Source: an uncultured Candidatus Saccharibacteria bacterium
Lineage (GTDB): Bacteria; Patescibacteriota; CALEFQ01
Direction: 5' to 3'
Assembly: GCA_965230955.1 (NCBI GenBank)
Contig: OZ246404.1
Span: 782,321 to 846,320 of the forward strand
Length of the DNA: 64,000 nucleotides
Every line of letters starts with the position of its first letter. Within the stretch, counting starts at the first letter, position 1. Of the stretch, positions 10,606-62,270 are shown piece by piece. The notes beneath the pieces were generated by a model that had not been told where the DNA came from, searched no databases, and saw only the letters and a program-made list of their open reading frames with translations. Position numbers and translations under genes: made by a program.

Positions 10606-13600
10606 TCAACCTCGGCTAATACCGACATTTGTAACACCGCCCGGGGTCAGTTTTTGCTCTTTCTCCAAATCCGGATTTATCCGATCGGCCAAGGCCGACA
10701 GGGAGATATCCTGAGCCAGCACCTCTTTGCTGATGTATTCACGTAATTTGGCATTCGCCAGCATGCCGGTCACCGCCGAGTCGGCCGTCGTGACACTGAT
10801 TCTGATTCTATCAGCCACATTGTAATCCGCCTCTTTGCGCATATCCTGAATCAGCCTGATCATTTCCCGGGCTAAGCCTTCGGCCTGCAATTCCGGCGTT
10901 ATATCCAAGTTCAATACCACCGTCGTTCCGGCTTCCTGAACTACCGCGAACCCCGGTTTGGCTTCCAAACCTTCACTATACTCCCCCGTTTCCAGGGTAA
11001 AGCGGCCCAATTTCAGACGGCCGGCCTCGTCTTTCTGGTATCCTTTGTTCATCTCCTTTTGGATCTCCGGTAATGCCGGACCATATTTCTTACCCAAGAG
11101 CGGGAAATTTAGCTTAACCTTTTTCTTCGCATATTCTTCCGCGCCGGAAATAAATTCCAACTGTTTGATATTCAGCTCTTCCTTGACTTGATCACTCAAA
11201 TCATCCGTTATCCGCCCGCCCACAACCATAATTTTTCCTAGCGGTTGTCGCACTTTTACTTTTCCGTGTTCCCGCGCCGCGCGCCCCAGCCGCACGACTT
11301 GCAAAACCAACTCCATCTCCCGATTCAGCTTGGCATCGATCAATGTTTTGTCGGCCTCGGGATATTCCGTCAAATGGATGGATTCGGGATCATTGCCACC
11401 TTTAAGATTTTGATAAATCGATTCCGTCAAAAAAGGAATAAACGGCGCCAGCAGTTTGGATAAAGTCATCAGCACGGTATAAAGAACTTGGTAAGCTTCG
11501 GCTTTATCACTATCGCTTTCGCTTTTCCAGAAACGGCGGCGGGAACGGCGCACATACCAATTGGCCAAACTGTCGATAAATTTTTCCGTCTTGGCCACGA
11601 CCGTCGCTTGGTCGTATTTTTTGAGCGATTGATTTGTCTGCGCAACCAGCTCGTGCAAAGCGGATAAAATCCAGCGATCGAGCTTATGTTTTGGCGCTTG
11701 GCGGACCAGAGTCAGCTTCGGCTGATCGATATTGGCGTAGGTGACAAAAAAGACATAGACATTCCACAGCAACAATAATTTTCGGCGCACTTCATCGGCC
11801 ACATGGTAGCCAAAACGCAGGTTCAATTCCGGCTGCTGGGCACAATACATCCAGCGCATAACATCGACGCCGATTTTTTCGGCCGCGTCATCAAACCAAA
11901 TGGCATTACCTTTGGATTTGTGCATTTCCTCGCCTTTTTCATCCTTGACCGTCGCATAACCGAGAACGGTTTGAAAAGGATTGGTATCTTCCAGCGCCGT
12001 ACTCATCGCAATCAGAGAATAAAACCAATTTTTGAACTGTCCGGGAAAAGATTCCGAAATGAAATCGGCGGGAAACCACTTTTTCCAGTATTCTTTGTCT
12101 CGGAAATAGCCCATCGTGGAAAACGGCACGATCCCGGCGTCCAGCCAGGGATTGCCCACGTCCGGTATACGGCTCACTGATTTGCCGCATTTGGGGCACT
12201 TGATTTTGATCGCGTCAATCCAAGGTTTGTGAGGACTGTGGCCATCGAACTCCGTCCAGCCGGCGACGGCTTTCTTTTGTAATTCTTCCCGCGAGCCGAT
12301 CACTTCAAAATGACCGCACTGGCATTCCCAAATCGGTAAGGCCAGGCCCCAATAACGCTTCTTCGAGATCAACCAGTCGTGCATATTTTTGAGCCAATCC
12401 AATTCTCGATCCAGGCCAAAACTCGGAATCCAATTGATTTTCTTGGATACCGCCATCATTTGGTGGCGCAATTTATCCATCGAAATATACCACTCATCCA
12501 CCACGCGCCAAACCAGTTCGTCTTTACAGCGCCAGCAAGTCGGATAGCGGTGCGTATATTCTTCCACTTTGAAATAATGCGTTTTTTGCTTTTTGAGATA
12601 ATCTAAAATTATTTCCGGCTTATTTTTGGCATTTTGCCCGCTGAAAGATCCCAGCTGATCCAGATATCCGGCGCTTTCATCAATCACATCAATCACCGGC
12701 AGTTTTTTTTCTTTGCCCAGCAAAAAATCTTCCGTCCCGGCACCGGGAGCGATATGGACAATTCCCGTTCCTTCTTCCGCCGTTACCAAATCTTTGCCAT
12801 CGACCACCGAATGAAAAGTTTTTTCATTCGTCTTTTTCGCTTCTTGCACCCGCGGCAAATTATCGAACGGTCCGCGATAATGCAACCCAGCCAGTTTGGC
12901 GCCGGAATTTTTTTCCACTTCTTTCCAATCTTTCCCCAAAACCTTGGCCGCCAGCTCGGCTAACATAATCAATTTTTCTCCATCTTTGGCGTAGACTCCG
13001 TAATCGAACTCGGGATTGACGGCCAGCGCAACATTGGCGGGAATAGTCCAAGGCGTGGTCGTCCAAACCAAGAATTGTTCGCCGGGGCGCTCGATAATCG
13101 GCAATTTGAAAAATATCGCCTTGTGTTTGAGCTGTTTGTATTCCTCGCTCAATATCTCATGCTGAGATATGGCTGTACCGCAACGGGGACACCAGGGGAC
13201 GGAATCACGTCCTTTGTATAAGTCGCCGCGCTCGAAGCAAGTTTTGATAAAATGCCAGATGGCGAAATTATTCTCATCACTCATCGTGTAATATGAATTG
13301 TCCCAGTCCATCCACTGTCCCAGACGAATCGACTGCTTGGTTTGGATAGCGGAATATTTTCGCACCCGCTCTTTGCATTTTTCGACAAATTCGCCAACGC
13401 CGTATTTTTCGATATCTTTTTTAGTCTTGAATTTCAGTTCTTTTTCAACTTCCACTTCCACCCACAAGCCCTGGCAATCGAAACCATTTTGCCAACGCTG
13501 ATCAAAACCCCGCATGGCAAAATAGCGCTGGAAAAGATCCTTCAGAGTTCGGCCCCAAGCGTGATGCACCCCCATCGGATTATTTGCGGTAATCGGACCG

Positions 13601-13734
13601 TCGAGAAATGACCAAGTCTTTTTTCCTTTCAGCTGTTGCTGAAGCTTGGCAAAAATTTTGTGTTTCGCCCAAAAATCGAGCATCTCGTGCTCGAGAACAA
13701 CGAAGTTCTGTTTCGGGTTTACTGGCTTTAACAT
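10606..13734 (-). CDS. ileS: isoleucine--tRNA ligase (the track start at 13776 runs into the palindromic repeat; the likely true start is MLKPVNP, near 13734)
   Basis: Class I HIGH region (PMGVHHAWGRT), KMSKS as EMHKSKGN, the CP1 editing domain, and a C-terminal zinc-binding region. The length fits IleRS. Confidence 0.9.
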   Translation of the reverse strand: MLKPVNPKQNFVVLEHEMLDFWAKHKIFAKLQQQLKGKKTWSFLDGPITANNPMGVHHAWGRTLKDLFQRYFAMRGFDQRWQNGFDCQGLWVEVEVEKELKFKTKKDIEKYGVGEFVEKCKERVRKYSAIQTKQSIRLGQWMDWDNSYYTMSDENNFAIWHFIKTCFERGDLYKGRDSVPWCPRCGTAISQHEILSEEYKQLKHKAIFFKLPIIERPGEQFLVWTTTPWTIPANVALAVNPEFDYGVYAKDGEKLIMLAELAAKVLGKDWKEVEKNSGAKLAGLHYRGPFDNLPRVQEAKKTNEKTFHSVVDGKDLVTAEEGTGIVHIAPGAGTEDFLLGKEKKLPVIDVIDESAGYLDQLGSFSGQNAKNKPEIILDYLKKQKTHYFKVEEYTHRYPTCWRCKDELVWRVVDEWYISMDKLRHQMMAVSKKINWIPSFGLDRELDWLKNMHDWLISKKRYWGLALPIWECQCGHFEVIGSREELQKKAVAGWTEFDGHSPHKPWIDAIKIKCPKCGKSVSRIPDVGNPWLDAGIVPFSTMGYFRDKEYWKKWFPADFISESFPGQFKNWFYSLIAMSTALEDTNPFQTVLGYATVKDEKGEEMHKSKGNAIWFDDAAEKIGVDVMRWMYCAQQPELNLRFGYHVADEVRRKLLLLWNVYVFFVTYANIDQPKLTLVRQAPKHKLDRWILSALHELVAQTNQSLKKYDQATVVAKTEKFIDSLANWYVRRSRRRFWKSESDSDKAEAYQVLYTVLMTLSKLLAPFIPFLTESIYQNLKGGNDPESIHLTEYPEADKTLIDAKLNREMELVLQVVRLGRAAREHGKVKVRQPLGKIMVVGGRITDDLSDQVKEELNIKQLEFISGAEEYAKKKVKLNFPLLGKKYGPALPEIQKEMNKGYQKDEAGRLKLGRFTLETGEYSEGLEAKPGFAVVQEAGTTVVLNLDITPELQAEGLAREMIRLIQDMRKEADYNVADRIRISVTTADSAVTGMLANAKLREYISKEVLAQDISLSALADRINPDLEKEQKLTPGGVTNVGISRG

Positions 13735-13750
13735 AAAACGAATAACAATT

Positions 13751-13825
13751 AACAGGTAACAGCTAACAAGTAACAAATTGGAAAAAATTCCATACCTGTT
13801 ACTTGTTACCTGTTACTTGCTACTT
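13751..13825. repeat. ~85-bp palindromic intergenic element, family R1 copy b
   Basis: aacaggtaacagctaacaagtaacaaattggaaaaaattccatacctgttacttgttacctgttacttgctactt. It abuts the stop of the 13824..14339 gene and ends about 15 nt before the ileS start. Confidence 0.6.
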
Positions 13826-15812: not shown

Positions 15813-16511
15813 CTAGAGCTTCTCTTTTATTTTCGATTCCAGCGCGCTCGCTTCCAGCATTCCCCCAATTTGCACCCCGTTCAAGAAAGCGGCCGGTGTC
15901 CCAGAAACGCCATAAGACTCCCCGTCCGCTTGATCGGCCTTGATCGCGTCGGCTACCGCCGAACTTTTCATGTCTTCCTCAAATTGAGAAACATTAAGTT
16001 TCAACTGCCGAGCGAATTCGACATATTTGCCGTCAGCCAAAGCGGCTTGGTTTTTGAAAAGCAGATCGGACATTTCCCAAAACTTTCCTTGCTGTTCCGC
16101 CGCGGCCGCCGCTTGGGCCGCCGGTAGCGCCTGGGGATGTCCGCTGAGAGGGAAATGGCGATAAACGATACGGAGATCACTGTTACTGAAAGTTTTGCGC
16201 GCCGCAATGGTGCTCTCGTGCATTTTAGAGCAGTAGGGGCACTGATAATCAGTGAAAATAATCAAAGTCACTTTCGCTTCGGCCTCTCCGGAAAAAACCG
16301 AATTGCCGGCTTTCACGTCTTCCGGATTAGGCGCCGGAGCCGGTTCGGCCAATTTCATCTGCTGTTCGTAAGCGGCAATGAGTGGAGCGCTTTTCGCCTC
16401 GAGATCGGAATATTTCACCTGCAAACCGCTGACCACTAAATACTGCCAGCTCAAACTGATGACAAAAAGAACGCAGACTAAGATCGCAATAACTTTCCAG
16501 GAATCTTTCAT
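15813..16511 (-). CDS. DsbA-family thiol:disulfide oxidoreductase (membrane-anchored)
   Basis: Thioredoxin-fold CPYC active site (TDYQCPYCSKMH), an N-terminal TM helix, and the FLNGVQI motif. Confidence 0.8.
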   Translation of the reverse strand: MKDSWKVIAILVCVLFVISLSWQYLVVSGLQVKYSDLEAKSAPLIAAYEQQMKLAEPAPAPNPEDVKAGNSVFSGEAEAKVTLIIFTDYQCPYCSKMHESTIAARKTFSNSDLRIVYRHFPLSGHPQALPAAQAAAAAEQQGKFWEMSDLLFKNQAALADGKYVEFARQLKLNVSQFEEDMKSSAVADAIKADQADGESYGVSGTPAAFLNGVQIGGMLEASALESKIKEKL

Positions 16512-26998: not shown

Positions 26999-27712
26999 TC
27001 AATTTCCCAATAAAGACATCCACCGGGAAAAATTTCCCGTCAGCAATAAAACTCCGATGATAATCAAGATTACTCCCACTATCTTATTTACTATCTTAAA
27101 CCATTTTGCCCGCGCTGACAAAAATTTTTGCGCCCGATCAGCGGCCAGGCTGATAACGACCAATGGTACGACGAGCCCAAGAGAATAGAAAAGAAGTAGC
27201 AGTATCCCCTCCCGGATCGAACCTTCGACACCGGCTAAAACCAAGATGCCGGCTAAAATCGGGCTGACGCACGGCGTCCAACTGACCGAAAAAATTACTC
27301 CCCCAAAAAACGACAACAACCAAGGAGCTAATTTACGCCCGGAAAGCTTAGCGACACCGGTCTGATGCGACTGGCTAAAAAACGGAATCCTAATCAACCC
27401 CGCCGCAACCAAGCCCATCATGATCATAACCAGGCCACCGATACGTTCCAACCACAGATCGGATTGATGCAACCAAGAGGTCAACCAGCCGAGCGAAGCG
27501 CCGAGAGCCACAAAGACCAAAGTGAACCCGAGAGCAAACCACAGCGAGCTGATCAATAGCCGACTAGATTTATTTGGCAGCAGATCAGCCGCCGATAAAT
27601 TTACTCCCGCCAACCAAGCCAGCCAAGCGGGTAATAAAACAATCACACAAGGCGAAAAAAAAGACAGCAAACCTCCGGAAAAAGCAGTCAGAAAAGAAAC
27701 AGGATCATTCAT
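26999..27712 (-). CDS. ccdA: cytochrome c-type biogenesis protein CcdA (DsbD transmembrane-domain family)
   Basis: FSGGLLSFFSPCVIVLLP and WTPCVSP, the conserved Cys pair in TM1/TM4. It has six or more TM helices. Confidence 0.8.
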   Translation of the reverse strand: MNDPVSFLTAFSGGLLSFFSPCVIVLLPAWLAWLAGVNLSAADLLPNKSSRLLISSLWFALGFTLVFVALGASLGWLTSWLHQSDLWLERIGGLVMIMMGLVAAGLIRIPFFSQSHQTGVAKLSGRKLAPWLLSFFGGVIFSVSWTPCVSPILAGILVLAGVEGSIREGILLLLFYSLGLVVPLVVISLAADRAQKFLSARAKWFKIVNKIVGVILIIIGVLLLTGNFSRWMSLLGN

Positions 27713-29474: not shown

Positions 29475-29999
29475 TTATTTTGCCTTCCCGAGCGTTTTTT
29501 TCTTGTCATTCCACTCAATCGGGCACATCGCCCCGGTTTGCAACGCCTGGAGAACCCGTAGCGTCTCCTGGACACTTCTGCCGACGTTTAAATCGTGAAC
29601 CACCTGGTACTGCAAGATTCCATGCGGATCAATCACAAAAGTACCCCGTAAAGCTACGCCCTTTTCCTCCAACAGCACGCCATATTGCCGGCTGACTTCC
29701 TTGGTGATGTCACTCAGCAGAGGAAAATCCAGTTCACCCAAATCGTTTTTTATCCAAGCTTGGTGCGAATAGACGCTATCGGTACTGATTCCAAAAACCT
29801 GGGCATTATGCATTTCAAATTCATCCAGCCGGCGGTTGAATTCCTTGATTTCGGTCGGACAAACAAAGGTGAAATCAAGCGGGTAGAAGAAAAGAACGGT
29901 CCATTTTGATTTACCGGGCAGAGGCCGGAATTTTTTTATCTGATCACCGACGATTCCCTGGAGAGAAAATTCCGGTGCGACTTTACTTACTTGAATCAT
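29475..29999 (-). CDS. peroxiredoxin (AhpC/Prx1-type thiol peroxidase)
   Basis: FFYPLDFTFVCPTEI peroxidatic cysteine motif and a resolving Cys near the C-terminus. Confidence 0.85.
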   Translation of the reverse strand: MIQVSKVAPEFSLQGIVGDQIKKFRPLPGKSKWTVLFFYPLDFTFVCPTEIKEFNRRLDEFEMHNAQVFGISTDSVYSHQAWIKNDLGELDFPLLSDITKEVSRQYGVLLEEKGVALRGTFVIDPHGILQYQVVHDLNVGRSVQETLRVLQALQTGAMCPIEWNDKKKTLGKAK

Positions 30000-30396
30000 A
30001 TTTTTCCTTTATTATTTGGTGATTTTTACATTTGGGACAATAGCCCCGGACGGTGATATCGACATCCACGATTTTGAATTTGCCGTTGCGGCTCAACCCC
30101 TGGCGCAAAGCGGTGTAACGACCGAAGTCGTCATAGACTCGCCCGCATTTCAGGCAGACAAAATGCTGATGATCGGTTTGTTCCGCGTCATAGCGCGAAC
30201 ATTCGCGATCAAAACATAATTCCTTGATCACGCCTTGCGCGGTCATTTGCTTTAGATTGCGGTAGACCGTGCCAAAACTGATAGTCGGGATTTTCTTTTT
30301 AACCGCCTCGAAAACGATATCGGCGGAAGGATGAGTTTTGACGGAACGTAAATAATCGAAGATTTCTTGTTTTTGAACTGTTTGTCGAGTAATCAT
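29983..30396 (-). CDS. Fur-family transcriptional regulator, probably PerR-like (co-transcribed with the peroxiredoxin)
   Basis: HQHFVCLKCGRV...GYCPKC zinc sites. HTH N-terminal half (FGTVYRNL). Confidence 0.8.
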   Translation of the reverse strand: MITRQTVQKQEIFDYLRSVKTHPSADIVFEAVKKKIPTISFGTVYRNLKQMTAQGVIKELCFDRECSRYDAEQTDHQHFVCLKCGRVYDDFGRYTALRQGLSRNGKFKIVDVDITVRGYCPKCKNHQIIKEKYDSSK

Positions 30397-49433: not shown

Positions 49434-50462
49434 TCAAATAACCCGTTCCCGATTCGCCGGGAAAGTGACGGCTTGTGTGATATTAGGTTGTCCCAAGAGC
49501 CACTGCATGATCCGCGCCAAGCCGAAGCCGCAGCCGGCGTGCGGCACGCTACCCTTTTGTTTGGTGTGCACCAGATACCAGTTAAAATCATCCAGCGATC
49601 CGCCTTTTTGTTTCAGGCGTTTAAACATCCGGGATTTTTTCAGACGCGATTCCAATTCCCGCGGATTATGCACCCGCGCCGCCGCCCCGACCGCTTCCCC
49701 GCCGTAAGGCAAGATGAGGTCGGCACTCAGCACCCGCCCCGGATTGGCGCGATCGGGAATCATGTTGAAAAATTTTTCCACTTCGATTTTTCCGTGCCGG
49801 CGCCATTGCGGATCGGGAAAGCGCACCAGAAAAATCGGCTGATTGCCATACGCCACCAGCAATTTTCGCTCCCGCGCCGAAGAAATATCGTCGCCCCATT
49901 CGATCTCCTCGCCCAGAGTTTGCAGCTTCTTGATCGCTTGATCGTAAGTCAATTTGGGAAACTTCAGCGGACAAAGCGATAACTCATTTATCCGGTGCTC
50001 TAATCCCAAGGCTCGCAGATCGGCCGCCGGCAAACTGAGCAATCCCCGCACGATCGCGTTAAGAAAGCCTTCGATGTAAGACAGCAGTTCATCGAAACCG
50101 CCGGCGAACTCAATTTCCACCAAGGTAAACTCGGTCAAATGCCGCTGATCCACCCGCGGCTCGGCTCGGAAACTCGGCCCAACACAATAAACTTTGCGCA
50201 GTTTCGGGACATACGCTTCCAGATAGAGCTGGCCGGTCTGCGCCAGGTAAACTTGTTTCGGTTTGCCCGCCGGCGTGAACCAGCGGGGATGGCGAGCGAC
50301 TGTCACCTGAAACAGAGTGTCGATGTTTTCGCAGGCGCCGCTGGCCCGAACGATCCGCGGCGGTAGCATCTCGTAGAAACCCTGGTCGTCGAGATATCGA
50401 CGACCGAACTTGAGCGCGTAGTGCTCGACTAGCGCGACTTGTTGGTCAATCATTTTTTTCAC
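49434..50462 (-). CDS. class II aminoacyl-tRNA-synthetase catalytic-core paralog (AsnRS/AspRS-like) lacking the anticodon-binding domain; an AsnA-type aspartate-ammonia ligase or similar
   Basis: Class II motif 2 GPSFRAE and motif 3 HAGCGFGLARIMQWLLG. Only about 340 aa, with no N-terminal OB fold. Confidence 0.6.
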   Translation of the reverse strand: MKKMIDQQVALVEHYALKFGRRYLDDQGFYEMLPPRIVRASGACENIDTLFQVTVARHPRWFTPAGKPKQVYLAQTGQLYLEAYVPKLRKVYCVGPSFRAEPRVDQRHLTEFTLVEIEFAGGFDELLSYIEGFLNAIVRGLLSLPAADLRALGLEHRINELSLCPLKFPKLTYDQAIKKLQTLGEEIEWGDDISSARERKLLVAYGNQPIFLVRFPDPQWRRHGKIEVEKFFNMIPDRANPGRVLSADLILPYGGEAVGAAARVHNPRELESRLKKSRMFKRLKQKGGSLDDFNWYLVHTKQKGSVPHAGCGFGLARIMQWLLGQPNITQAVTFPANRERVI

Positions 50463-50790
50463 TTATTAATGGATAAAAAAATTCCCCCGAGCTCGGGGGA
50501 AGAAATGGATTGAAATTGGACGTCGGCGTTTTCTCAGCGCCGGGAGCGATGAGAAAAAAAATAGTCCCCGGTGGGGACATTTTGCCTGAGGAAACCGCGA
50601 TAGTTTTTGTATCTGGAGGTGTGTCATTTAATAATTTTACATTTTCACTATCATATACCCTCCGGCCGAAAAGGGACAATAATACTTATGTGGATAACTA
50701 TTTTTATCAAAACAGGCGCGGCCAGCCAAATAGACTGGCAGCCGCGCCGGTAATAGATTTTGGTGACAAGGCATGGGCGGGAAAATGCTT

Positions 50791-51585
50791 TTAGCGCAAA
50801 GTGCCGCCGAAAACCTGCCAGGCCAGCAATGATTTGGCCACCAAACTCAGAATGATGTAGACATATTCGCCGTAGACGTAACTGCGCCACTTCCCCACTT
50901 TCTTGTATTGCAGAACAATATTGAAGGCGAAAATGGCAAACGAGATGAAAATGGTGACAAAGATCCAATAGACAAAATCGGGAATTTTGGAACCTTCTTG
51001 GCTGCCGGTACCGATCAAGTAAATCATCAAGATAATCCAGGGAATAATCCCGGCGATACAGCCGAACCAGTACGGCATCCAGTCGACGGACTTTTCCGGT
51101 TGGCGATTCATCTTTTCCATGAGCCAGCCAAAAAGGATCATCATGGCATTGAGCGAGAACATCAGGATCAGCGTGGCGAAATCATAAATGCCGGCCAGCA
51201 TGGCAATGGCCACGATCATAATCGAAGAGCTGAAGGAATACTCGATCCAACGCGCCGGGTTGATGCCGTTAGAAATATTTTTGACGTACCAGCGGTTAAT
51301 ACCCGGTAGAACCACCATCAGGTGAGCAAAAGCCGATATAAAAAGGAAAGAGGCCACGAGAGGACCAAACGGGATCTCGAAAACCGTCTCGATATTCGGC
51401 CAGATTTTCTGCATCATCGGATTGAATTTCAGAAAAGAGGTGGTCACCGGCAGAGAAAAATCGTTGCTCAAATAGAGCATCAGTCCGCCTTGGATGGCGT
51501 GTAAAACCGCCATCACGGCGTTAAAAATCCGCAGTTTTCGAAAACCGGCGGCATCGGCCTGGATGACAGGTTTGGGCTCTTTCAT
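50791..51585 (-). CDS. heliorhodopsin (7-TM retinal protein, HeR family)
   Basis: Strong similarity by recall to heliorhodopsin 48C12: RWIEYSFSSSIMIVAIAMLAGI, MILFGWLMEK, PYWFGCIAGIIPWIILMIYLIGTGS, and YIILSLVAKSLLAWQVFGGTL, with the Schiff-base Lys in TM7. The length is 264 aa. Confidence 0.85.
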   Translation of the reverse strand: MKEPKPVIQADAAGFRKLRIFNAVMAVLHAIQGGLMLYLSNDFSLPVTTSFLKFNPMMQKIWPNIETVFEIPFGPLVASFLFISAFAHLMVVLPGINRWYVKNISNGINPARWIEYSFSSSIMIVAIAMLAGIYDFATLILMFSLNAMMILFGWLMEKMNRQPEKSVDWMPYWFGCIAGIIPWIILMIYLIGTGSQEGSKIPDFVYWIFVTIFISFAIFAFNIVLQYKKVGKWRSYVYGEYVYIILSLVAKSLLAWQVFGGTLR

Positions 51586-51812
51586 AGGTTTTATGTTAGT
51601 TAGATTTATTGAAATGATACCAGGTTTTTTCTAAAACCTGGCTACTGCAGTCGAGCCGATAATTATTTTTTAGCCTAGGAATCCACTTCGGGAACGGCTC
51701 AAAAATAATTATCGGCTTGGCTTAAATAAGCAGTGTGGAAGAACAACTTAGTATGAGTTCATTACTACTGCAAGTGTATCACATTTCGCCGGGAAAATCA
51801 GCCTCGGCGCTT

Positions 51813-52511
51813 CTAAAGGTAATACCCGCCGCTATTCTTTTTCAGCCATTTCCGGCGCGACAAATAATCAGGATCCAGCCGCGCGACTTCTTGCCAAAAG
51901 GTGCGAGAATGATTGGGGTGGCGCAAATGGGCCAATTCGTGATTGATCACATAATCAATCAGCGCCGGAGGCAACATGACCAAACGCCAGGTGAAATTGA
52001 GATTCCCGGAACTGCTACACGATCCCCAGCGCGTCCCGGCACTCGTCAGCCGCCAGGAACGATAGCGATAAGCGTAGAGCGCGGCCAATTGATCGAGCCG
52101 GGCGCCGATAATTCTCCGCGCTTCTTTTTTGTACCACGCGATAATTTTTTTCTTCGTCAATCGCGGTCCGCCCTCGGGCAAAAGCAATTCTTTCTTCAAT
52201 GGATTACATTGGGCCGACCGGCCGGTAGCGCCGAAGAATAGTTTGTATTTCTCTCCCAAATACCAAAATTCTTCGCCCGCGACATAGCGATGAACGGGAG
52301 CGAGCGGCCGTGATTTCAAAACCGTCAAACGTTTCTCGATCCAATCGAAGTGCCGCCGGGTGAATCGCTCAATCTCCCCCATTGAAACCCACCAGGGCGC
52401 GCGAATCGTCAGCGTGGCGTCTGGAGCGATCGTCAGCGCCAGCGAGCGCCGGCGGGAACGTTTGAGGCAAAAACGAGCCGGAAACGAATTGATTGTTTCT
52501 TGTTCTGTCAT
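51813..52511 (-). CDS. DUF45/YgjP-family (WLM-like) zinc metallopeptidase
   Basis: HELAHLRHPNHSRTFW zincin motif, and a YgjP-like N-terminal region. Confidence 0.7.
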   Translation of the reverse strand: MTEQETINSFPARFCLKRSRRRSLALTIAPDATLTIRAPWWVSMGEIERFTRRHFDWIEKRLTVLKSRPLAPVHRYVAGEEFWYLGEKYKLFFGATGRSAQCNPLKKELLLPEGGPRLTKKKIIAWYKKEARRIIGARLDQLAALYAYRYRSWRLTSAGTRWGSCSSSGNLNFTWRLVMLPPALIDYVINHELAHLRHPNHSRTFWQEVARLDPDYLSRRKWLKKNSGGYYL

Positions 52512-57768: not shown

Positions 57769-60507
57769 TTACTTATCGAATAATGTTGGGACATGCCCAT
57801 TAGTAAACCCCTCCAACCCAAGCTCTTCGTGCTTAAGTTCGTCATAACCATCGAAGTCATCGACACCGGAAATATCTGCTGATTTAAAGCCACGTCTTTC
57901 CATAATTTTGTCAACGAGAAAAAATGTCCTTATACCACCCTCCTTCTCTAAAAGTTTTAGTGCCTTTTTACGATCATCTATTTGTTTGGTTTCGGCCAGG
58001 TGTTTGCCCTTCACATCAACAATAATCCATTCACCGTTCATAAAAGCTAAAAAGTCCGGATAAAACGGCGCGGGTTTTACTTCGACTGGATATTCAGTTC
58101 TCGGCTCGTTTCTTACCCAAAAGCTTTTTCTCTTCTTATCCAGTGAGCACAAATGTTCCAATGTATCGGCGACCCATTTTTCCGGCGGACTATCAAACTT
58201 TACGTATGGCCTGATAGAATATTTGTAGTCTTCAACAATCGTGCCCTTCTGCTGTAAATGAGACGACATTTCTTGATATGATGGAATGAGATTTAATATC
58301 TTCCCATCTCTTTTCCTTATCGTAACAGCGCTGTCAATGAAAATATCCTTGACATTCTTTTTTTTAAAATCAAATTGGCTCTTAAACATCAAATCCGAAG
58401 ACCCCTGTTCATAAAACCCCGTAATCTTTTTCTTAAGCGCTCTTAAGGCTCTTTTACGATCGACGGCATACGCAGTATCAACCCGAATACCCGCATCAAA
58501 AATAGACTTAATTAATTTTTCAACCGATTTTCTTGAGATGTCTCCGATGTGAGGTCCCGTTTCGTCGATAAAATCCAGCGCCCAACGTGCTAGATCATTA
58601 TCCGGTAAAGTTAGTGTTACTCGAGTAGTGGCCGGCTTGTCCGTTTTCAATTCAAATTCCGGTCCAGTAACTTCAGCATAATCTACCATCGCCATAACTT
58701 CATCCTTTAACACTCTGTCTCCGCGGGATAAACCACAAGAGTCATCAATAAATGACTTAACGCTCAATTTTTTATCTTTAAGTGCTTCGTCGAAGGTAAT
58801 ACCCGTTGCCACTCGTTTAATTTGTAGGATTGGAATTTGATAATCGTCTATGATCTTACTATTAACTTTGTTTTCTTTATCTTCCTCTTCCGTGGGTATC
58901 TCAACGCTAGCTGGCGATAAAGCAAGATTCTCCCGAATTTCTTCGACAATCCGGTCAAATCTTTTGCCACGTTCGCAGACGACATGCAAAATTTCGCTCT
59001 GCTCCTTCAAATCGTGATCTAACAGATCGTATTCTCGTTTTTCTTTATAAAGACGCAGGCCACGTCCAATTAACTGAGCAGCTGCCAATCCCACATTCTC
59101 TATGGTGTCTCCCAAAACTACGATGGTATAAAAATTATCGTAATCTACGCCTTCGGTAAAAATCCTGACCTGATTTACAATCTCTGCCTTATTGTCATCA
59201 AGCGACTGATAATCAGCCCAGGTTTCTTCATCACTTTTATTTTCGCTATGAATGGTAAAAACGGATTTTGCCAAAGAAGAAAGCTGTTTAACGAGCTCCT
59301 CTTTATTTTTGGGAATGTTATGTCTAACAATTTTGGCGATGTCGGTTCCTTCTAGGTTAACCTGCTCCAGGACGTCATCCAGTTCGCCGGAAACCGAGTC
59401 CGGCCAATTTTTCAAATACACATCCACTGCCTCGGCATGTTTTATGGTTCTTGCCTTAGTGAGCAACATGGATTTTTTAACGGGAGCATTTACGGCGGTT
59501 AAGGAGGCGCGCTTCAAGAGATGAATCAACATGCCCCATATTAACTTTTGCTTGTCGCTTTCATTCACTTCATCGCCGGTTTTTTCTTCTCCTAGCCCGC
59601 ATCCTACTGCAAAAATTCGCTTTCCATAACCTTCGCTGATATATCTCTGCATCGGATATTTATAGAGATTGTCCTGGCCAAAGCTTTCACTGTCGTTTTT
59701 CTCCAAAGACGTAGCGGTAAATTCCAATACCATGCTTGGCAATAATTCGAAAATTGCTTCGGTGGTTTTCTTTTGTTGATAGTGATGGGCCTCGTCCGAA
59801 ATTATAACCAGCCGTCTTTCTCTTAAAAATTCAATAAATGAAATAGTATGATTTCCGCTTTTATCTCGCCATAGCGATTCTTCCAATGGACGTCTTACGT
59901 ATGGTACGCCCTTCATGGTATCCTCGCCGTCTTTCTGATTGGCCGTTCCTCTGTCATAAAACTTCTGCATGTTAAAAACGTAGAACGTGATGTCCTTACC
60001 ATCTTCATAGTTACAGGTTTTATCCCGATAGGAATTACCGGTTACGAGATTGTAAGTTAAATTCCAGCCATCGCCAAAAATACTTTTAACGGCTCTGGGA
60101 GTGAAATTCTCAATGGTCTTATCAAAAAGAATCGTGTTAGGAGTTAAGATAAGAAAATCTTTGTGTCCGCGGTTATATAAATCCAAAATCATCGCTCCCA
60201 TCAGTAAAGTCTTCCCGGAACCGGTGGCCATTTCGAAACCAATTTTATTCCACTGGACAATTTTATCTTCGTCGTCTCTGCTCTGCTGGACGGTCTTTTG
60301 CTTAATGCTTCTGCTATCAAATTTATTATTCAGGAAAAGCTGAAAAGCGCCCATGGCTTCTATTTGATAGGGTCGCATTGGAAACTTAAGCAGGTGCTGT
60401 ATTTTATCGTAATTCTCTATAATCTTAGGTGAAGCGGAACCGACAGCAATTTTATATTGCTGGTCCTCACTTACCGAATCGTAAAATGTTTTTTGTTTAA
60501 TTTTCAT
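57769..60507 (-). CDS. res: Type III restriction enzyme, Res subunit (SF2 helicase-nuclease)
   Basis: Walker A ATGSGKT, DEAH box VIISDEAHH, and helicase motif VI QLIGRGLR. The length is 912 aa. It overlaps mod by 4 nt. Codons are AT-rich. Confidence 0.85.
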   Translation of the reverse strand: MKIKQKTFYDSVSEDQQYKIAVGSASPKIIENYDKIQHLLKFPMRPYQIEAMGAFQLFLNNKFDSRSIKQKTVQQSRDDEDKIVQWNKIGFEMATGSGKTLLMGAMILDLYNRGHKDFLILTPNTILFDKTIENFTPRAVKSIFGDGWNLTYNLVTGNSYRDKTCNYEDGKDITFYVFNMQKFYDRGTANQKDGEDTMKGVPYVRRPLEESLWRDKSGNHTISFIEFLRERRLVIISDEAHHYQQKKTTEAIFELLPSMVLEFTATSLEKNDSESFGQDNLYKYPMQRYISEGYGKRIFAVGCGLGEEKTGDEVNESDKQKLIWGMLIHLLKRASLTAVNAPVKKSMLLTKARTIKHAEAVDVYLKNWPDSVSGELDDVLEQVNLEGTDIAKIVRHNIPKNKEELVKQLSSLAKSVFTIHSENKSDEETWADYQSLDDNKAEIVNQVRIFTEGVDYDNFYTIVVLGDTIENVGLAAAQLIGRGLRLYKEKREYDLLDHDLKEQSEILHVVCERGKRFDRIVEEIRENLALSPASVEIPTEEEDKENKVNSKIIDDYQIPILQIKRVATGITFDEALKDKKLSVKSFIDDSCGLSRGDRVLKDEVMAMVDYAEVTGPEFELKTDKPATTRVTLTLPDNDLARWALDFIDETGPHIGDISRKSVEKLIKSIFDAGIRVDTAYAVDRKRALRALKKKITGFYEQGSSDLMFKSQFDFKKKNVKDIFIDSAVTIRKRDGKILNLIPSYQEMSSHLQQKGTIVEDYKYSIRPYVKFDSPPEKWVADTLEHLCSLDKKRKSFWVRNEPRTEYPVEVKPAPFYPDFLAFMNGEWIIVDVKGKHLAETKQIDDRKKALKLLEKEGGIRTFFLVDKIMERRGFKSADISGVDDFDGYDELKHEELGLEGFTNGHVPTLFDK

Positions 60508-62270
60508 AATAAATTGTATTCTCTTAAAATCGCTGTCGGGATTTTCCTAATGAGCACGCGATCATCAAGCGACTCATTTGGCACGGCAACAGCCATGTTA
60601 GTGAAAATCGTAAGATGTCTAAATTTTTCTTTGTCTAGGCCGGCAACGATTTTATTATAAGTGTCTTCATCAAGAGGCTTAACTTCCCTCGAAGCAAAAG
60701 AAAGGGCGTAGTTATAAGTAGCCGACCTGTGTTTACCTAGATACATTTTTTCTTTTTCCAGCCAATCAGCTTTAACTGGCTTATATTGAAAGTGCAGAAA
60801 AATTGCCTCAGCCATTTCTTCGGCCTTAAGCATCCAATTCATATCCTGTTCACGAATTAAGCTCTCACCAAGTTGATAGTATTTAAAACCACCGCCACCC
60901 TGCCAATTCGCATCTTTACTTACACCAGTTTGGTCACTTCCATTCGTTACTTTCTGCAAACGTGGAATAATGAGTTCATCGGCCTGTCGGCCCATTTCGA
61001 CCATTAACCATCGCCGTTTCATTTTTTGTGCTACTGCGCCGGTAGTTCCACTGAAAGCAAAAGTATCTAAAACAATGTCGTTTTCCTGTGTGGACATGCC
61101 TATAATCCGATGCAAAAGTCTTTCTGGTTTTCTTGTTCTATCTTCTCCTTTTATGCCGCCTTCGCCCCTAGCCGCATTTGAGACATCTTCCTTAGTCCAA
61201 AAATCACTTGGTTTTTCAAACTTATATATTACATCCTTTTCATTACTTGCTACAGATGATAGCCAACCGCACAATGCTTTCCCAAAATAGAAGTTCGTAG
61301 TAAGAGTGTCTACATTTTTTCCACGGCTCGGTGTATACTCCACCGAATAAAGCCCTTTATCCATCTGATCCATCAGCTCATGTTGAAATTTATTCTCTTT
61401 TTGCACTAAAAAGGTTCGGAAAATTTTATCAAAATTTTTCTTATAAAAATCTTTAAACTTCTTTCGGCTGTCTTCCAATTCATTAAATGGTATTCGTTCA
61501 ATTTTATAATTATCGTGTTTAAAAATCTTTACTGGCTCTTTATTTGATTTTGAAAGAAACTCCTTTACCAACTTTTTATTACCTTCGCTGATAAGAATCT
61601 GCCCATATCCTTTCAATTTTTCATATTCAAAAACTTTTTTAACGGTAAAATCTGCATTTATTGTGAGGCTTGTTTTTTCTTTTGCATAAACAAGAATATA
61701 TTCGGTCACATTTGCGAGCATTTTTCCTCCCAACCCTAAGCCAGCTACAGCTGAACGCTCCCATGCTACTTGCGATATAAAATTGTCGCGTCCGAATACC
61801 TCATCCATTAAAACTTTAAGATAGCCCTGCTCAATATCATCAATGTGCACAAAAATGACCCCATCGTGTCTCAATAATTTTCGCAGAAGACGAAGCCGAT
61901 CCCGCATCATGGTTAACCACTGAGAGTGTTGTAAATTATCCTCGTATCTTTCAAACGCATTTCCGGTATTAAAAGGAGGATCAATGTATATGCATTTAAC
62001 TCTCTCTTCGTCCGGCTTACCTTTGAACATTTCCACCAAACTTCGCAAAACCAACAGATTATCACCTTTGATAAGCATGTTTCCGCTAGTTTTATCTCCG
62101 TAGCCTTTGACGAAGCGTAAAATACGAGGCTCTGCAACCCGGATGTCGTTTTTTGGTACCCAAACCGGTCGAACGCCCTTACCTTCTTTTTCATCAATCT
62201 CATAGTAAAGAGAAAGGTCTTTATTGATCCAGTTTAATTGAAGTGATCCTTTGTGGTTCTTTTTCCGCAC
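60504..62270 (-). CDS. mod: Type III restriction-modification Mod subunit (N6-adenine/N4-cytosine DNA methyltransferase)
   Basis: IYIDPPFNTG (DPPF/Y catalytic motif IV) and the SAM-binding region. It has the mod-then-res order. Confidence 0.85.
   Translation of the reverse strand: MRKKNHKGSLQLNWINKDLSLYYEIDEKEGKGVRPVWVPKNDIRVAEPRILRFVKGYGDKTSGNMLIKGDNLLVLRSLVEMFKGKPDEERVKCIYIDPPFNTGNAFERYEDNLQHSQWLTMMRDRLRLLRKLLRHDGVIFVHIDDIEQGYLKVLMDEVFGRDNFISQVAWERSAVAGLGLGGKMLANVTEYILVYAKEKTSLTINADFTVKKVFEYEKLKGYGQILISEGNKKLVKEFLSKSNKEPVKIFKHDNYKIERIPFNELEDSRKKFKDFYKKNFDKIFRTFLVQKENKFQHELMDQMDKGLYSVEYTPSRGKNVDTLTTNFYFGKALCGWLSSVASNEKDVIYKFEKPSDFWTKEDVSNAARGEGGIKGEDRTRKPERLLHRIIGMSTQENDIVLDTFAFSGTTGAVAQKMKRRWLMVEMGRQADELIIPRLQKVTNGSDQTGVSKDANWQGGGGFKYYQLGESLIREQDMNWMLKAEEMAEAIFLHFQYKPVKADWLEKEKMYLGKHRSATYNYALSFASREVKPLDEDTYNKIVAGLDKEKFRHLTIFTNMAVAVPNESLDDRVLIRKIPTAILREYNLL

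Follow-up and report, generated by a model that had tools for sequence, protein, structure and literature searches.

The closest structurally described relatives of the protein reported here are TaHeR, the heliorhodopsin (HeR) of the Thermoplasmatales archaeon SG8-52-1 (PDB entries 6is6, 7u55 and 7clj), and 48C12, from a freshwater actinobacterial fosmid (PDB entries 6su3 and 6uh3). HeRs are also on record from genomes of the Candidate Phyla Radiation (CPR, Patescibacteria): 98 were counted by Chiriac et al. (2022, PMC9166423), with SLVAK as the commonest motif in transmembrane helix (TM) 7, and the genomic context analysis of Bulzu et al. (2021, PMC8612252) took in Patescibacteria as well. 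HeRs of this group, the SLVAK motif included, have already been published, and the gene studied here is one further member. It lies on the minus strand of a 64-kb stretch of DNA, the whole of which was analysed and is referred to as the window. Judged by its sequence, the gene is a genuine, intact heliorhodopsin and nothing contradicts its membership in the family. From sequence, predicted structure and analogy with the described proteins we consider it likely that the product is a functional, retinal-binding light sensor of a patescibacterial (CPR) organism.

Family membership, retinal site and predicted fold

The coding sequence and the codons discussed in this and the following section are:

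50791..51585 (-): HeR coding sequence, ATG start, 264 residues, intact open reading frame (ORF)
51241..51243 (-): codon of E115, Schiff-base counterion (E107 in 48C12, E108 in TaHeR)
50935..50937 (-): codon of A217, which takes the place of the fenestration Asn (N207 in 48C12, N204 in TaHeR)
50833..50835 (-): codon of K251, retinal Schiff-base lysine (K241 in 48C12, K238 in TaHeR; from alignments to 6su3 and 6is6), invariant in 54 of 54 homologs

The ORF matched the Pfam family Heliorhodopsin (PF18761) over the full profile (positions 1–242 of 242) with an E-value of 2.1e-100 and 335.5 bits, compared to a cutoff of 26.7. The NCBIfam equivalog NF038020, annotated as "heliorhodopsin HeR", was likewise covered from end to end (1–244 of 244; 336 bits, cutoff 100). 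A preliminary description of this DNA had assigned the 264-residue product to the HeR family and had suggested a HMMER search against PF18761 as a check. The assignment stands, and it is borne out further by the agreement of residues with 48C12 and TaHeR and by the predicted fold. The three motifs quoted in that description were all found in the translation of the ORF: RWIEYSFSSS (residues 112–121), FGCIAGIIPW (174–183) and SLVAKSLLAWQ (247–257). A sequence search of the PDB returned TaHeR as the best hit (6is6, E = 2.3e-78; 54% identity over 250 residues), ahead of 48C12 (6su3, E = 5e-63; 47% identity) and then Cv06 from a eukaryote (9vfc). A public protein collection contained more than 7,400 relatives at E ≤ 1e-20, many of them in Patescibacteria, and about 1,560 clusters (50% identity) of a library of 1.84 billion proteins matched the protein at E ≤ 1e-10.

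A comparison with the HeR gene of a 97%-identical strain (locus L082) resulted in 0.18 synonymous (dS) and 0.014 nonsynonymous (dN) substitutions per site. With a dN/dS ratio of 0.076 the gene is under strong purifying selection and is therefore not decaying.

Kovalev et al. (2020, PMC7049168) list 43 structurally important positions of 48C12, which we mapped onto the protein via the HMMER alignment. Identical residues were found at 37 of them, and the core residues are invariant among 54 close homologs. The TM7 lysine pointed out in the preliminary description is K251. It is part of the SxxxK motif S247-L-V-A-K251, in which S247 corresponds to Ser237 of 48C12; both residues are invariant in the 54 homologs. 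Type-1 rhodopsins carry DxxxK in TM7 in place of SxxxK. The position of the counterion, E115, is the aligned column at which the structure of the TaHeR mutant E108D (7clj) departs from 6is6. The serine residues that stabilize the counterion are kept (S84 and S119, equivalent to S76 and S111 of 48C12). The polar cavity on the cytoplasmic side of the Schiff base is identical in all 11 residues: H29, H88, N22, Y100, N109, R112, Y116, E157, E240, Y236 and Q226 correspond to H23, H80, N16, Y92, N101, R104, Y108, E149, E230, Y226 and Q216 of 48C12. R112 is the conserved gate arginine. The retinal site is thus intact by sequence, and the extracellular half of the protein is hydrophobic. The six differences from 48C12 are Q213 to I223, N207 to A217, S201 to T211, L96 to I104, L227 to V237 and L202 to I212. 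At the position of I223 other HeRs have Gln or Met, the hydrophobic residue of TaHeR being Met. By sequence comparison, all six replacements are either conservative or located at positions known to vary.

An AlphaFold2 (AF2) model calculated from the 54 homologs (predicted local distance difference test score of 90.8, predicted template modelling score of 0.87) comprises seven helices. Between helices A and B, residues 44–55 and 60–72 form the two strands of the AB-loop β-hairpin typical of HeR. P182, which induces the bulge in helix E of the HeR fold, is also present. The model thus displays the HeR fold with its seven TM helices, AB hairpin and helix E proline. A Foldseek search with the model yielded exclusively HeR structures among the ten best hits (TM-scores from 0.85 to 0.88), whereas type-1 rhodopsins trailed widely (TM-score ~0.55–0.6, E ~5e-4). 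Superposition with 6is6 resulted in TM-scores of 0.88 and 0.93 and a root-mean-square deviation of 1.5 Å. The N-terminus and the BC, DE and FG loops contain 12 lysine and arginine residues (14 if K17 and R19 are included), compared to four in the AB, CD and EF loops and the C-terminus. According to the positive-inside rule this supports the inverted topology with a cytoplasmic N-terminus that had been proposed beforehand.

The protein shares with TaHeR the Schiff-base lysine, the glutamate counterion, the SxxxK motif, the histidine pair, the cytoplasmic polar cavity and the AB-loop β-hairpin. The DE and EF loops are slightly longer than in TaHeR owing to insertions of one and five residues, respectively; K165 and G198 are insertions at the level of the clade. 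The host of TaHeR is an archaeon and the host here is a bacterium (Patescibacteria), and both are without an obvious retinal pathway. TaHeR has been characterised, whereas the protein described here is known from its sequence and predicted structure.

Proposed mode of action and the lateral fenestration

Based on what has been described for 48C12 and TaHeR, we propose the following mode of action. The protein would bind all-trans retinal, which would be isomerised by light. The proton of the Schiff base would then pass into the internal cavity, with no net transport of ions. The signalling or regulatory state could be a long-lived photointermediate, which would act by protein–protein contact. 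Since nothing conserved adjoins the gene (see below), the partner would have to be encoded elsewhere in the genome. The output is most likely a response to light or to photo-oxidative or UV stress. A role in the response to light, UV or oxidative stress is the leading published proposal for HeRs (PMC8612252, PMC9166423), and it is weakly echoed by genes for UV repair and methionine sulfoxide reductases beside HeR in some relatives.

Several points weigh against this proposal. The stress-related genes that accompany HeR in relatives are all missing beside it in the window, the genes for a peroxiredoxin and a Fur-family regulator being 20 kb away. The enrichment of pyrimidine-dimer glycosylase genes near HeR is modest (5 of ~960 ORFs), and two of the loci involved, L016 and L017, are close relatives of each other. 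The mechanism is taken over from homologs, and in the literature searched, a measured retinal binding, photocycle or partner is reported for no CPR HeR. Finally, our view covers 64 kb of the genome, and a blh/crt cluster or a partner gene may be located elsewhere.

The residues that define the lateral fenestration are present: the aromatic pair Y172/F216, the non-bulky pair C176/A220 and G179 (positions 162/206, 166/210 and 169 of 48C12). TaHeR has the same fenestration residues except for Asn204, which corresponds to Ala217. Among close relatives, 183 out of 194 have Asn at this position, and Ala occurs solely in the protein described here and in that of the 97%-identical strain (P0001). A different picture emerged for 150 diverse representatives from the library of 1.84 billion proteins (Asn in 50, Ala in 17, Ser in 14, Phe in 12, Val in 10 and Gly in 9). 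These counts rule out an exceptional substitution on the scale of the family. As judged from the alignments, Ala at position 217 is a normal variant across the family and is unusual just within the sub-clade.

A 2025 preprint (10.1101/2025.11.27.691015) proposed that HeRs recruit exogenous xanthophylls. Its authors name the Asn as the one residue by which the HeR fenestration differs notably from its counterpart in type-1 rhodopsins that bind carotenoids, where Gly is present, and find that ~91% of HeRs satisfy the fenestration motif. Because of this high proportion the motif does not discriminate the protein described here from other HeRs. Transferred to our case, the protein would be a light harvester with two antennae, retinal and an exogenous xanthophyll at the lateral fenestration, and Ala217 would resemble the Gly of xanthorhodopsin-type proteins more closely than Asn does. 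Every sequence feature listed in the preprint is indeed found, Ala replaces precisely the residue named as the sole notable difference, and in any case the host is probably dependent on isoprenoid pigments from outside. The hypothesis is, however, based on docking and sequence motifs, and the preprint itself finds that Gly is not required; besides, Ala, Ser or Gly occupies position 217 in ~30% of the diverse representatives. Experimental carotenoid binding or energy transfer to retinal is reported for no HeR in the literature searched, and an antenna alone would define no output function. We therefore regard a second antenna as unlikely.

In a more specific version of this idea, Ala217 would be an adaptation. 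It is common to two strains under purifying selection within a clade that is nearly invariant in Asn, and it might widen the fenestration for the capture of host-derived retinal or the docking of a xanthophyll in a pigment-auxotrophic episymbiont. This appears quite improbable to us. If true, the protein would be a natural test case for the hypothesis of an exogenous second antenna.

Neighbouring genes, spacers and transcription

The genes and elements flanking HeR, listed from the upstream to the downstream side, are:

51813..52511 (-): upstream neighbour, YgjP-like (DUF45) zinc metallopeptidase, 232 residues; PF01863, E = 1.2e-58
51611..51763 (.): imperfect palindrome of 153 nt between the stop of the YgjP-like gene and the start of HeR; arms of 69 nt, fold -43.7 kcal/mol, z = -6.6
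50712..50751 (-): GC-rich hairpin (inverted repeat I5) followed by UGUUUUGAU, ~40 nt past the HeR stop; RNA fold -30.8 kcal/mol, z = -2.6
50482..50578 (-): two hairpins with long U-runs (50578–50564 and 50501–50482), with a third in the middle, all within the 328-nt spacer; from a scan for terminator-like structures, fold z = -3.5
49434..50462 (-): downstream neighbour, AsnRS-like class II catalytic core without anticodon-binding domain, 342 residues; PF00152

The spacers around HeR measure 227 nt on the side of the YgjP-like gene and 328 nt on the side of the AsnRS-like gene. Pfam and NCBIfam confirmed both neighbours as they had been named in the preliminary description, a DUF45 peptidase upstream and an AsnRS-like paralog downstream. 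The same description saw no obvious partner among them. To survey the neighbourhood in relatives we searched 78 HeR loci from genomes with flanks of 6 kb for all window neighbours, employing tblastn and phmmer (E < 0.01), and inspected the contigs of the nearest relatives (~85 loci in all). Neither neighbour is conserved beside HeR in these loci, in agreement with the earlier statement.

A YgjP-like gene was found within ~6 kb of HeR in none of the 78 genome loci, and it is absent from the contigs of relatives with HeRs of 78%, 73%, 70% and 69% identity. Only in the 97%-identical strain L082 is it kept upstream of HeR. The AsnRS-like gene is missing in that strain, where a different gene follows HeR. 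A gene with a weak match to IS200-like transposases (Y1_Tnp; L082:448-1047) overlaps the beginning of the upstream YgjP-like gene in this strain. The Y1_Tnp-like gene and the differing downstream gene point to a recent rearrangement around the locus.

HeR and the metallopeptidase could nevertheless form a light-regulated protease pair, analogous to the pairs of HeR with glutamine synthetase, photolyase or an ABC transporter. The two genes are adjacent and on the same strand in the window, the spacer is just 73 nt in L082, and HeRs of Actinobacteria have been described as co-transcribed with "a hydrolase, a peptidase" (Bulzu et al., PMC8612252). The lack of conservation in the survey largely refutes this reading: an adjacency common to strains at 97% identity is mere strain-level synteny, and a partnership with the YgjP-like peptidase going beyond such synteny was rejected. 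Between the two genes in the window, moreover, stands the palindrome with its two strong hairpins. We consider the pair very improbable.

The AsnRS-like protein aligned to positions 131–448 of the 451 positions of the AsnRS profile with 183 bits compared to a cutoff of 414, and it scored below every equivalog cutoff. Its relatives are ~330–340 residues long (uniformly ~334), carry the annotation "amino acid--tRNA ligase-related protein" and occur widely among Patescibacteria. From its sequence, it is a stand-alone paralog, neither an AsnRS nor a truncation of one. The uniform length of all relatives rules out a truncated pseudogene with an N-terminal domain decayed into the 328-nt spacer. The protein also gave weak matches to models of archaeal-type asparagine synthetase A. 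It could be an amino-acid-activating or asparagine-synthesising enzyme of reduced genomes. As a partner of HeR it was ruled out: a match within 6 kb was found in one of the 78 loci (a protein of 439 residues and thus of unrelated length), the gene is absent in L082, and its family is spread throughout the Patescibacteria.

Cho et al. (2024, PMC11109279) described ten classes of HeR neighbours, namely glutamine and NAD+ synthetases, photolyase, MerR, TerC, ABC transporter, short-chain dehydrogenase/reductase, α/β hydrolase, DUF2177 and DUF2238. In Pfam scans of the 48 ORFs of the window we found none of these classes, neither adjacent to HeR nor anywhere in the 64 kb. The HeR of the operons with glutamine synthetase, photolyase or OmrDE (PMC11109279) is of the same family as ours, but these partner classes are missing from the window. 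For 275 out of 448 helR genes in the same study, no neighbouring gene was assigned to a common operon, with which the lack of a conserved neighbour in our locus agrees. Clustering of all ORFs in the 78 loci resulted in a single recurrent family, generic ABC ATPases, in 14 loci. For a family of such abundance this roughly equals the background, and as no member is located near HeR in the window, an ABC-transporter association was ruled out.

On the contigs of the nearest relatives, HeR is accompanied by a NUDIX gene (78% identity), an extracytoplasmic function (ECF) sigma factor gene (70%) or the BipA gene (69%). The company of the 73%-identical HeR (P0003) consists of TspO, MsrB, MsrA and a pyrimidine-dimer glycosylase. 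In L085 and L086 a TspO/MBR gene ends 20 nt before the gene of P0003, with MsrB downstream; MsrA is also found in L084 (stretches L084:1-2694, L085:2061-4369 and L086:33-2341). This neighbourhood has a flavour of light and oxidative stress. Genes for the pyrimidine-dimer DNA glycosylase (Pyr_excise, PF03013) lie at most four genes from HeR in five of the 78 loci and in the metagenome contig L084 (L001:6747-7205, L006:4377-4793, L016:6802-7134, L017:6802-7134, L061:1124-1555 and L084:2687-3112), and none is present in the window. In L016 and L017 the gene starts 13 nt after HeR. A link to UV damage, parallel to the published pairing of HeR with photolyase, is possible. In locus L038 (817-4339) two genes for ABC exporters of ~590 residues each are located directly upstream of HeR on the same strand, an arrangement that resembles OmrDE-HeR (PMC11109279).

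The hairpin at 50712..50751 with its short U-run is a likely intrinsic terminator of the HeR transcript. A T-box or another riboswitch in the 328-nt spacer was ruled out, since apart from two chance-level matches no Rfam family was matched even at E ≤ 1. Upstream of HeR, a consensus scan revealed no sigma-70 promoter, the number of sites not exceeding that in shuffled sequences. Alignment to L082 identified the 153-nt palindrome as a clean insertion, the distance from the YgjP-like stop to the HeR start being 73 nt in that strain. A search of the window and of JGI metagenome contigs gave no further copy. The palindrome may be an element resembling a miniature inverted-repeat transposable element (MITE), a terminator cassette or something else.

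From the flanking hairpins the preliminary description had suggested that HeR is monocistronic. This is supported in part, by the presence of hairpins on both sides, the long spacers and the terminator-like hairpin. The upstream hairpin, however, belongs to the insertion that is absent in L082. Because the spacer is so short there, the YgjP-like gene and HeR may be co-transcribed in L082, as far as can be read from the sequence. A monocistronic HeR is plausible for the strain studied here, but it is no stable feature of the locus.

Host, retinal supply and significance

The named best matches of the BipA protein encoded in the window are all from Patescibacteria (Kerfeld-, Magasanik- and Falkowbacteria and the Parcubacteria group) at ~70% identity. 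The closest HeR loci in a collection of species-representative genomes are mostly from patescibacterial metagenome-assembled genomes (MAGs), the best being 74% identical. An identical HeR with the same neighbourhood is present on a 9.1-kb Logan contig (SRR10083293). The published CPR HeRs (PMC9166423, PMC8612252) have in common with ours the phylum-level host, the SLVAK motif, the inferred reversed orientation and the lack of a retinal pathway. Most of them, however, come from Saccharimonadia, whereas by BipA similarity the host here is nearest to lineages of the Kerfeld-, Magasanik- and Falkowbacteria type. HeRs have been reported to be restricted to hosts that are monoderm or lack a classical outer membrane; the assignment to Patescibacteria is compatible with this rule, the envelope type itself not being readable from 64 kb. 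Several HeR-bearing MAGs are titled "uncultured Gammaproteobacteria". One of them, L017, shows synteny along all of its 12.8 kb with L016 and L024, which are titled as Patescibacteria, and at least its title is therefore unreliable. Such records should not be counted as HeRs in diderms.

Housekeeping genes in the window include those for IleRS, ArgRS, TGT, RecO, SmpB (with tmRNA), IF3 and BipA. Large surface proteins and PMT-type glycosyltransferases are encoded as well. An AhpC/TSA peroxiredoxin gene adjoins a gene for a Fur-family regulator (29475-30396, minus strand) at 20 kb from HeR. Together with the genes of DsbD-like and DsbA-like thiol-disulfide proteins (26999-27712 and 15813-16511, minus strand) it shows that functions in oxidative stress are encoded within the 64 kb, but all these genes are at least 20 kb away from HeR and unlinked to it. 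A type III restriction helicase (ResIII) and an N6/N4 DNA methylase are encoded at 57769-62270 (minus strand) with a GC content of 0.38–0.41 compared to ~0.48 for the window; this is probably a horizontally acquired restriction-modification module. An inverted repeat with arms of 37 nt, rich in GTAACA-like units (13743-13822), lies across the start of the gene for IleRS (10606-13776, minus strand) and has no Rfam match at the gathering threshold.

The Pfam scans of the 48 ORFs detected no member of the blh/BCD, phytoene synthase, phytoene desaturase or lycopene cyclase families in the 64-kb window, so that the absence of blh and crt genes noted before holds. Genomes of Saccharibacteria with type-1 rhodopsins lack blh, and their rhodopsins as well as TaHeR take up retinal rapidly through an opening (PMC9296517). 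Because there is no retinal or carotenoid pathway in the window and none in the published surveys of rhodopsin-bearing CPR (Saccharibacteria), scavenging from a host or the surroundings via the fenestration is, by analogy, the most likely source of the chromophore.

Two further readings of the protein's function have little in their favour. Some HeRs, mainly of the viral subfamily 2, move protons (mentioned in PMC11109279, PMC12873467 and the preprint 10.1101/2025.11.27.691015), and the protein might accordingly resemble the viral V2HeR3 in being a light-gated proton channel or transporter. It groups, however, with TaHeR and 48C12, both of which are reported as non-transporting, and the hydrophobic extracellular half is kept. 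Ile212 is found where many members of subfamily 2 have Glu (position 202 of 48C12), and Pro182 and Asn146, which are both missing in that subfamily (PMC7049168), are retained. The chance that the protein transports protons is in our view very slight. That it is a remnant, decaying or without function, in a reduced genome unable to make retinal, as the small size of CPR genomes and the lack of a retinal pathway in the window could suggest, is refuted by the selection signal (dN/dS of 0.076 at a dS of 0.18), and the intact ORF, the conservation of all catalytic-site residues and the more than 7,400 relatives, many of them patescibacterial, leave this reading practically no weight.

The question of HeR function is a real one, but lacking a conserved partner, this locus offers no special handle on it. 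Small leads come from relatives (Pyr_excise, TspO, MsrA/MsrB and the pair of ABC exporters), none of which applies to this locus. What the gene contributes, little beyond its correct annotation, is an intact and selectively maintained HeR copy in a patescibacterial lineage whose nearest groups are Kerfeld-, Magasanik- and Falkowbacteria. It adds weight to two patterns in the literature: HeRs of CPR are found with no retinal pathway in sight, and a fixed neighbour is lacking for most helR genes.

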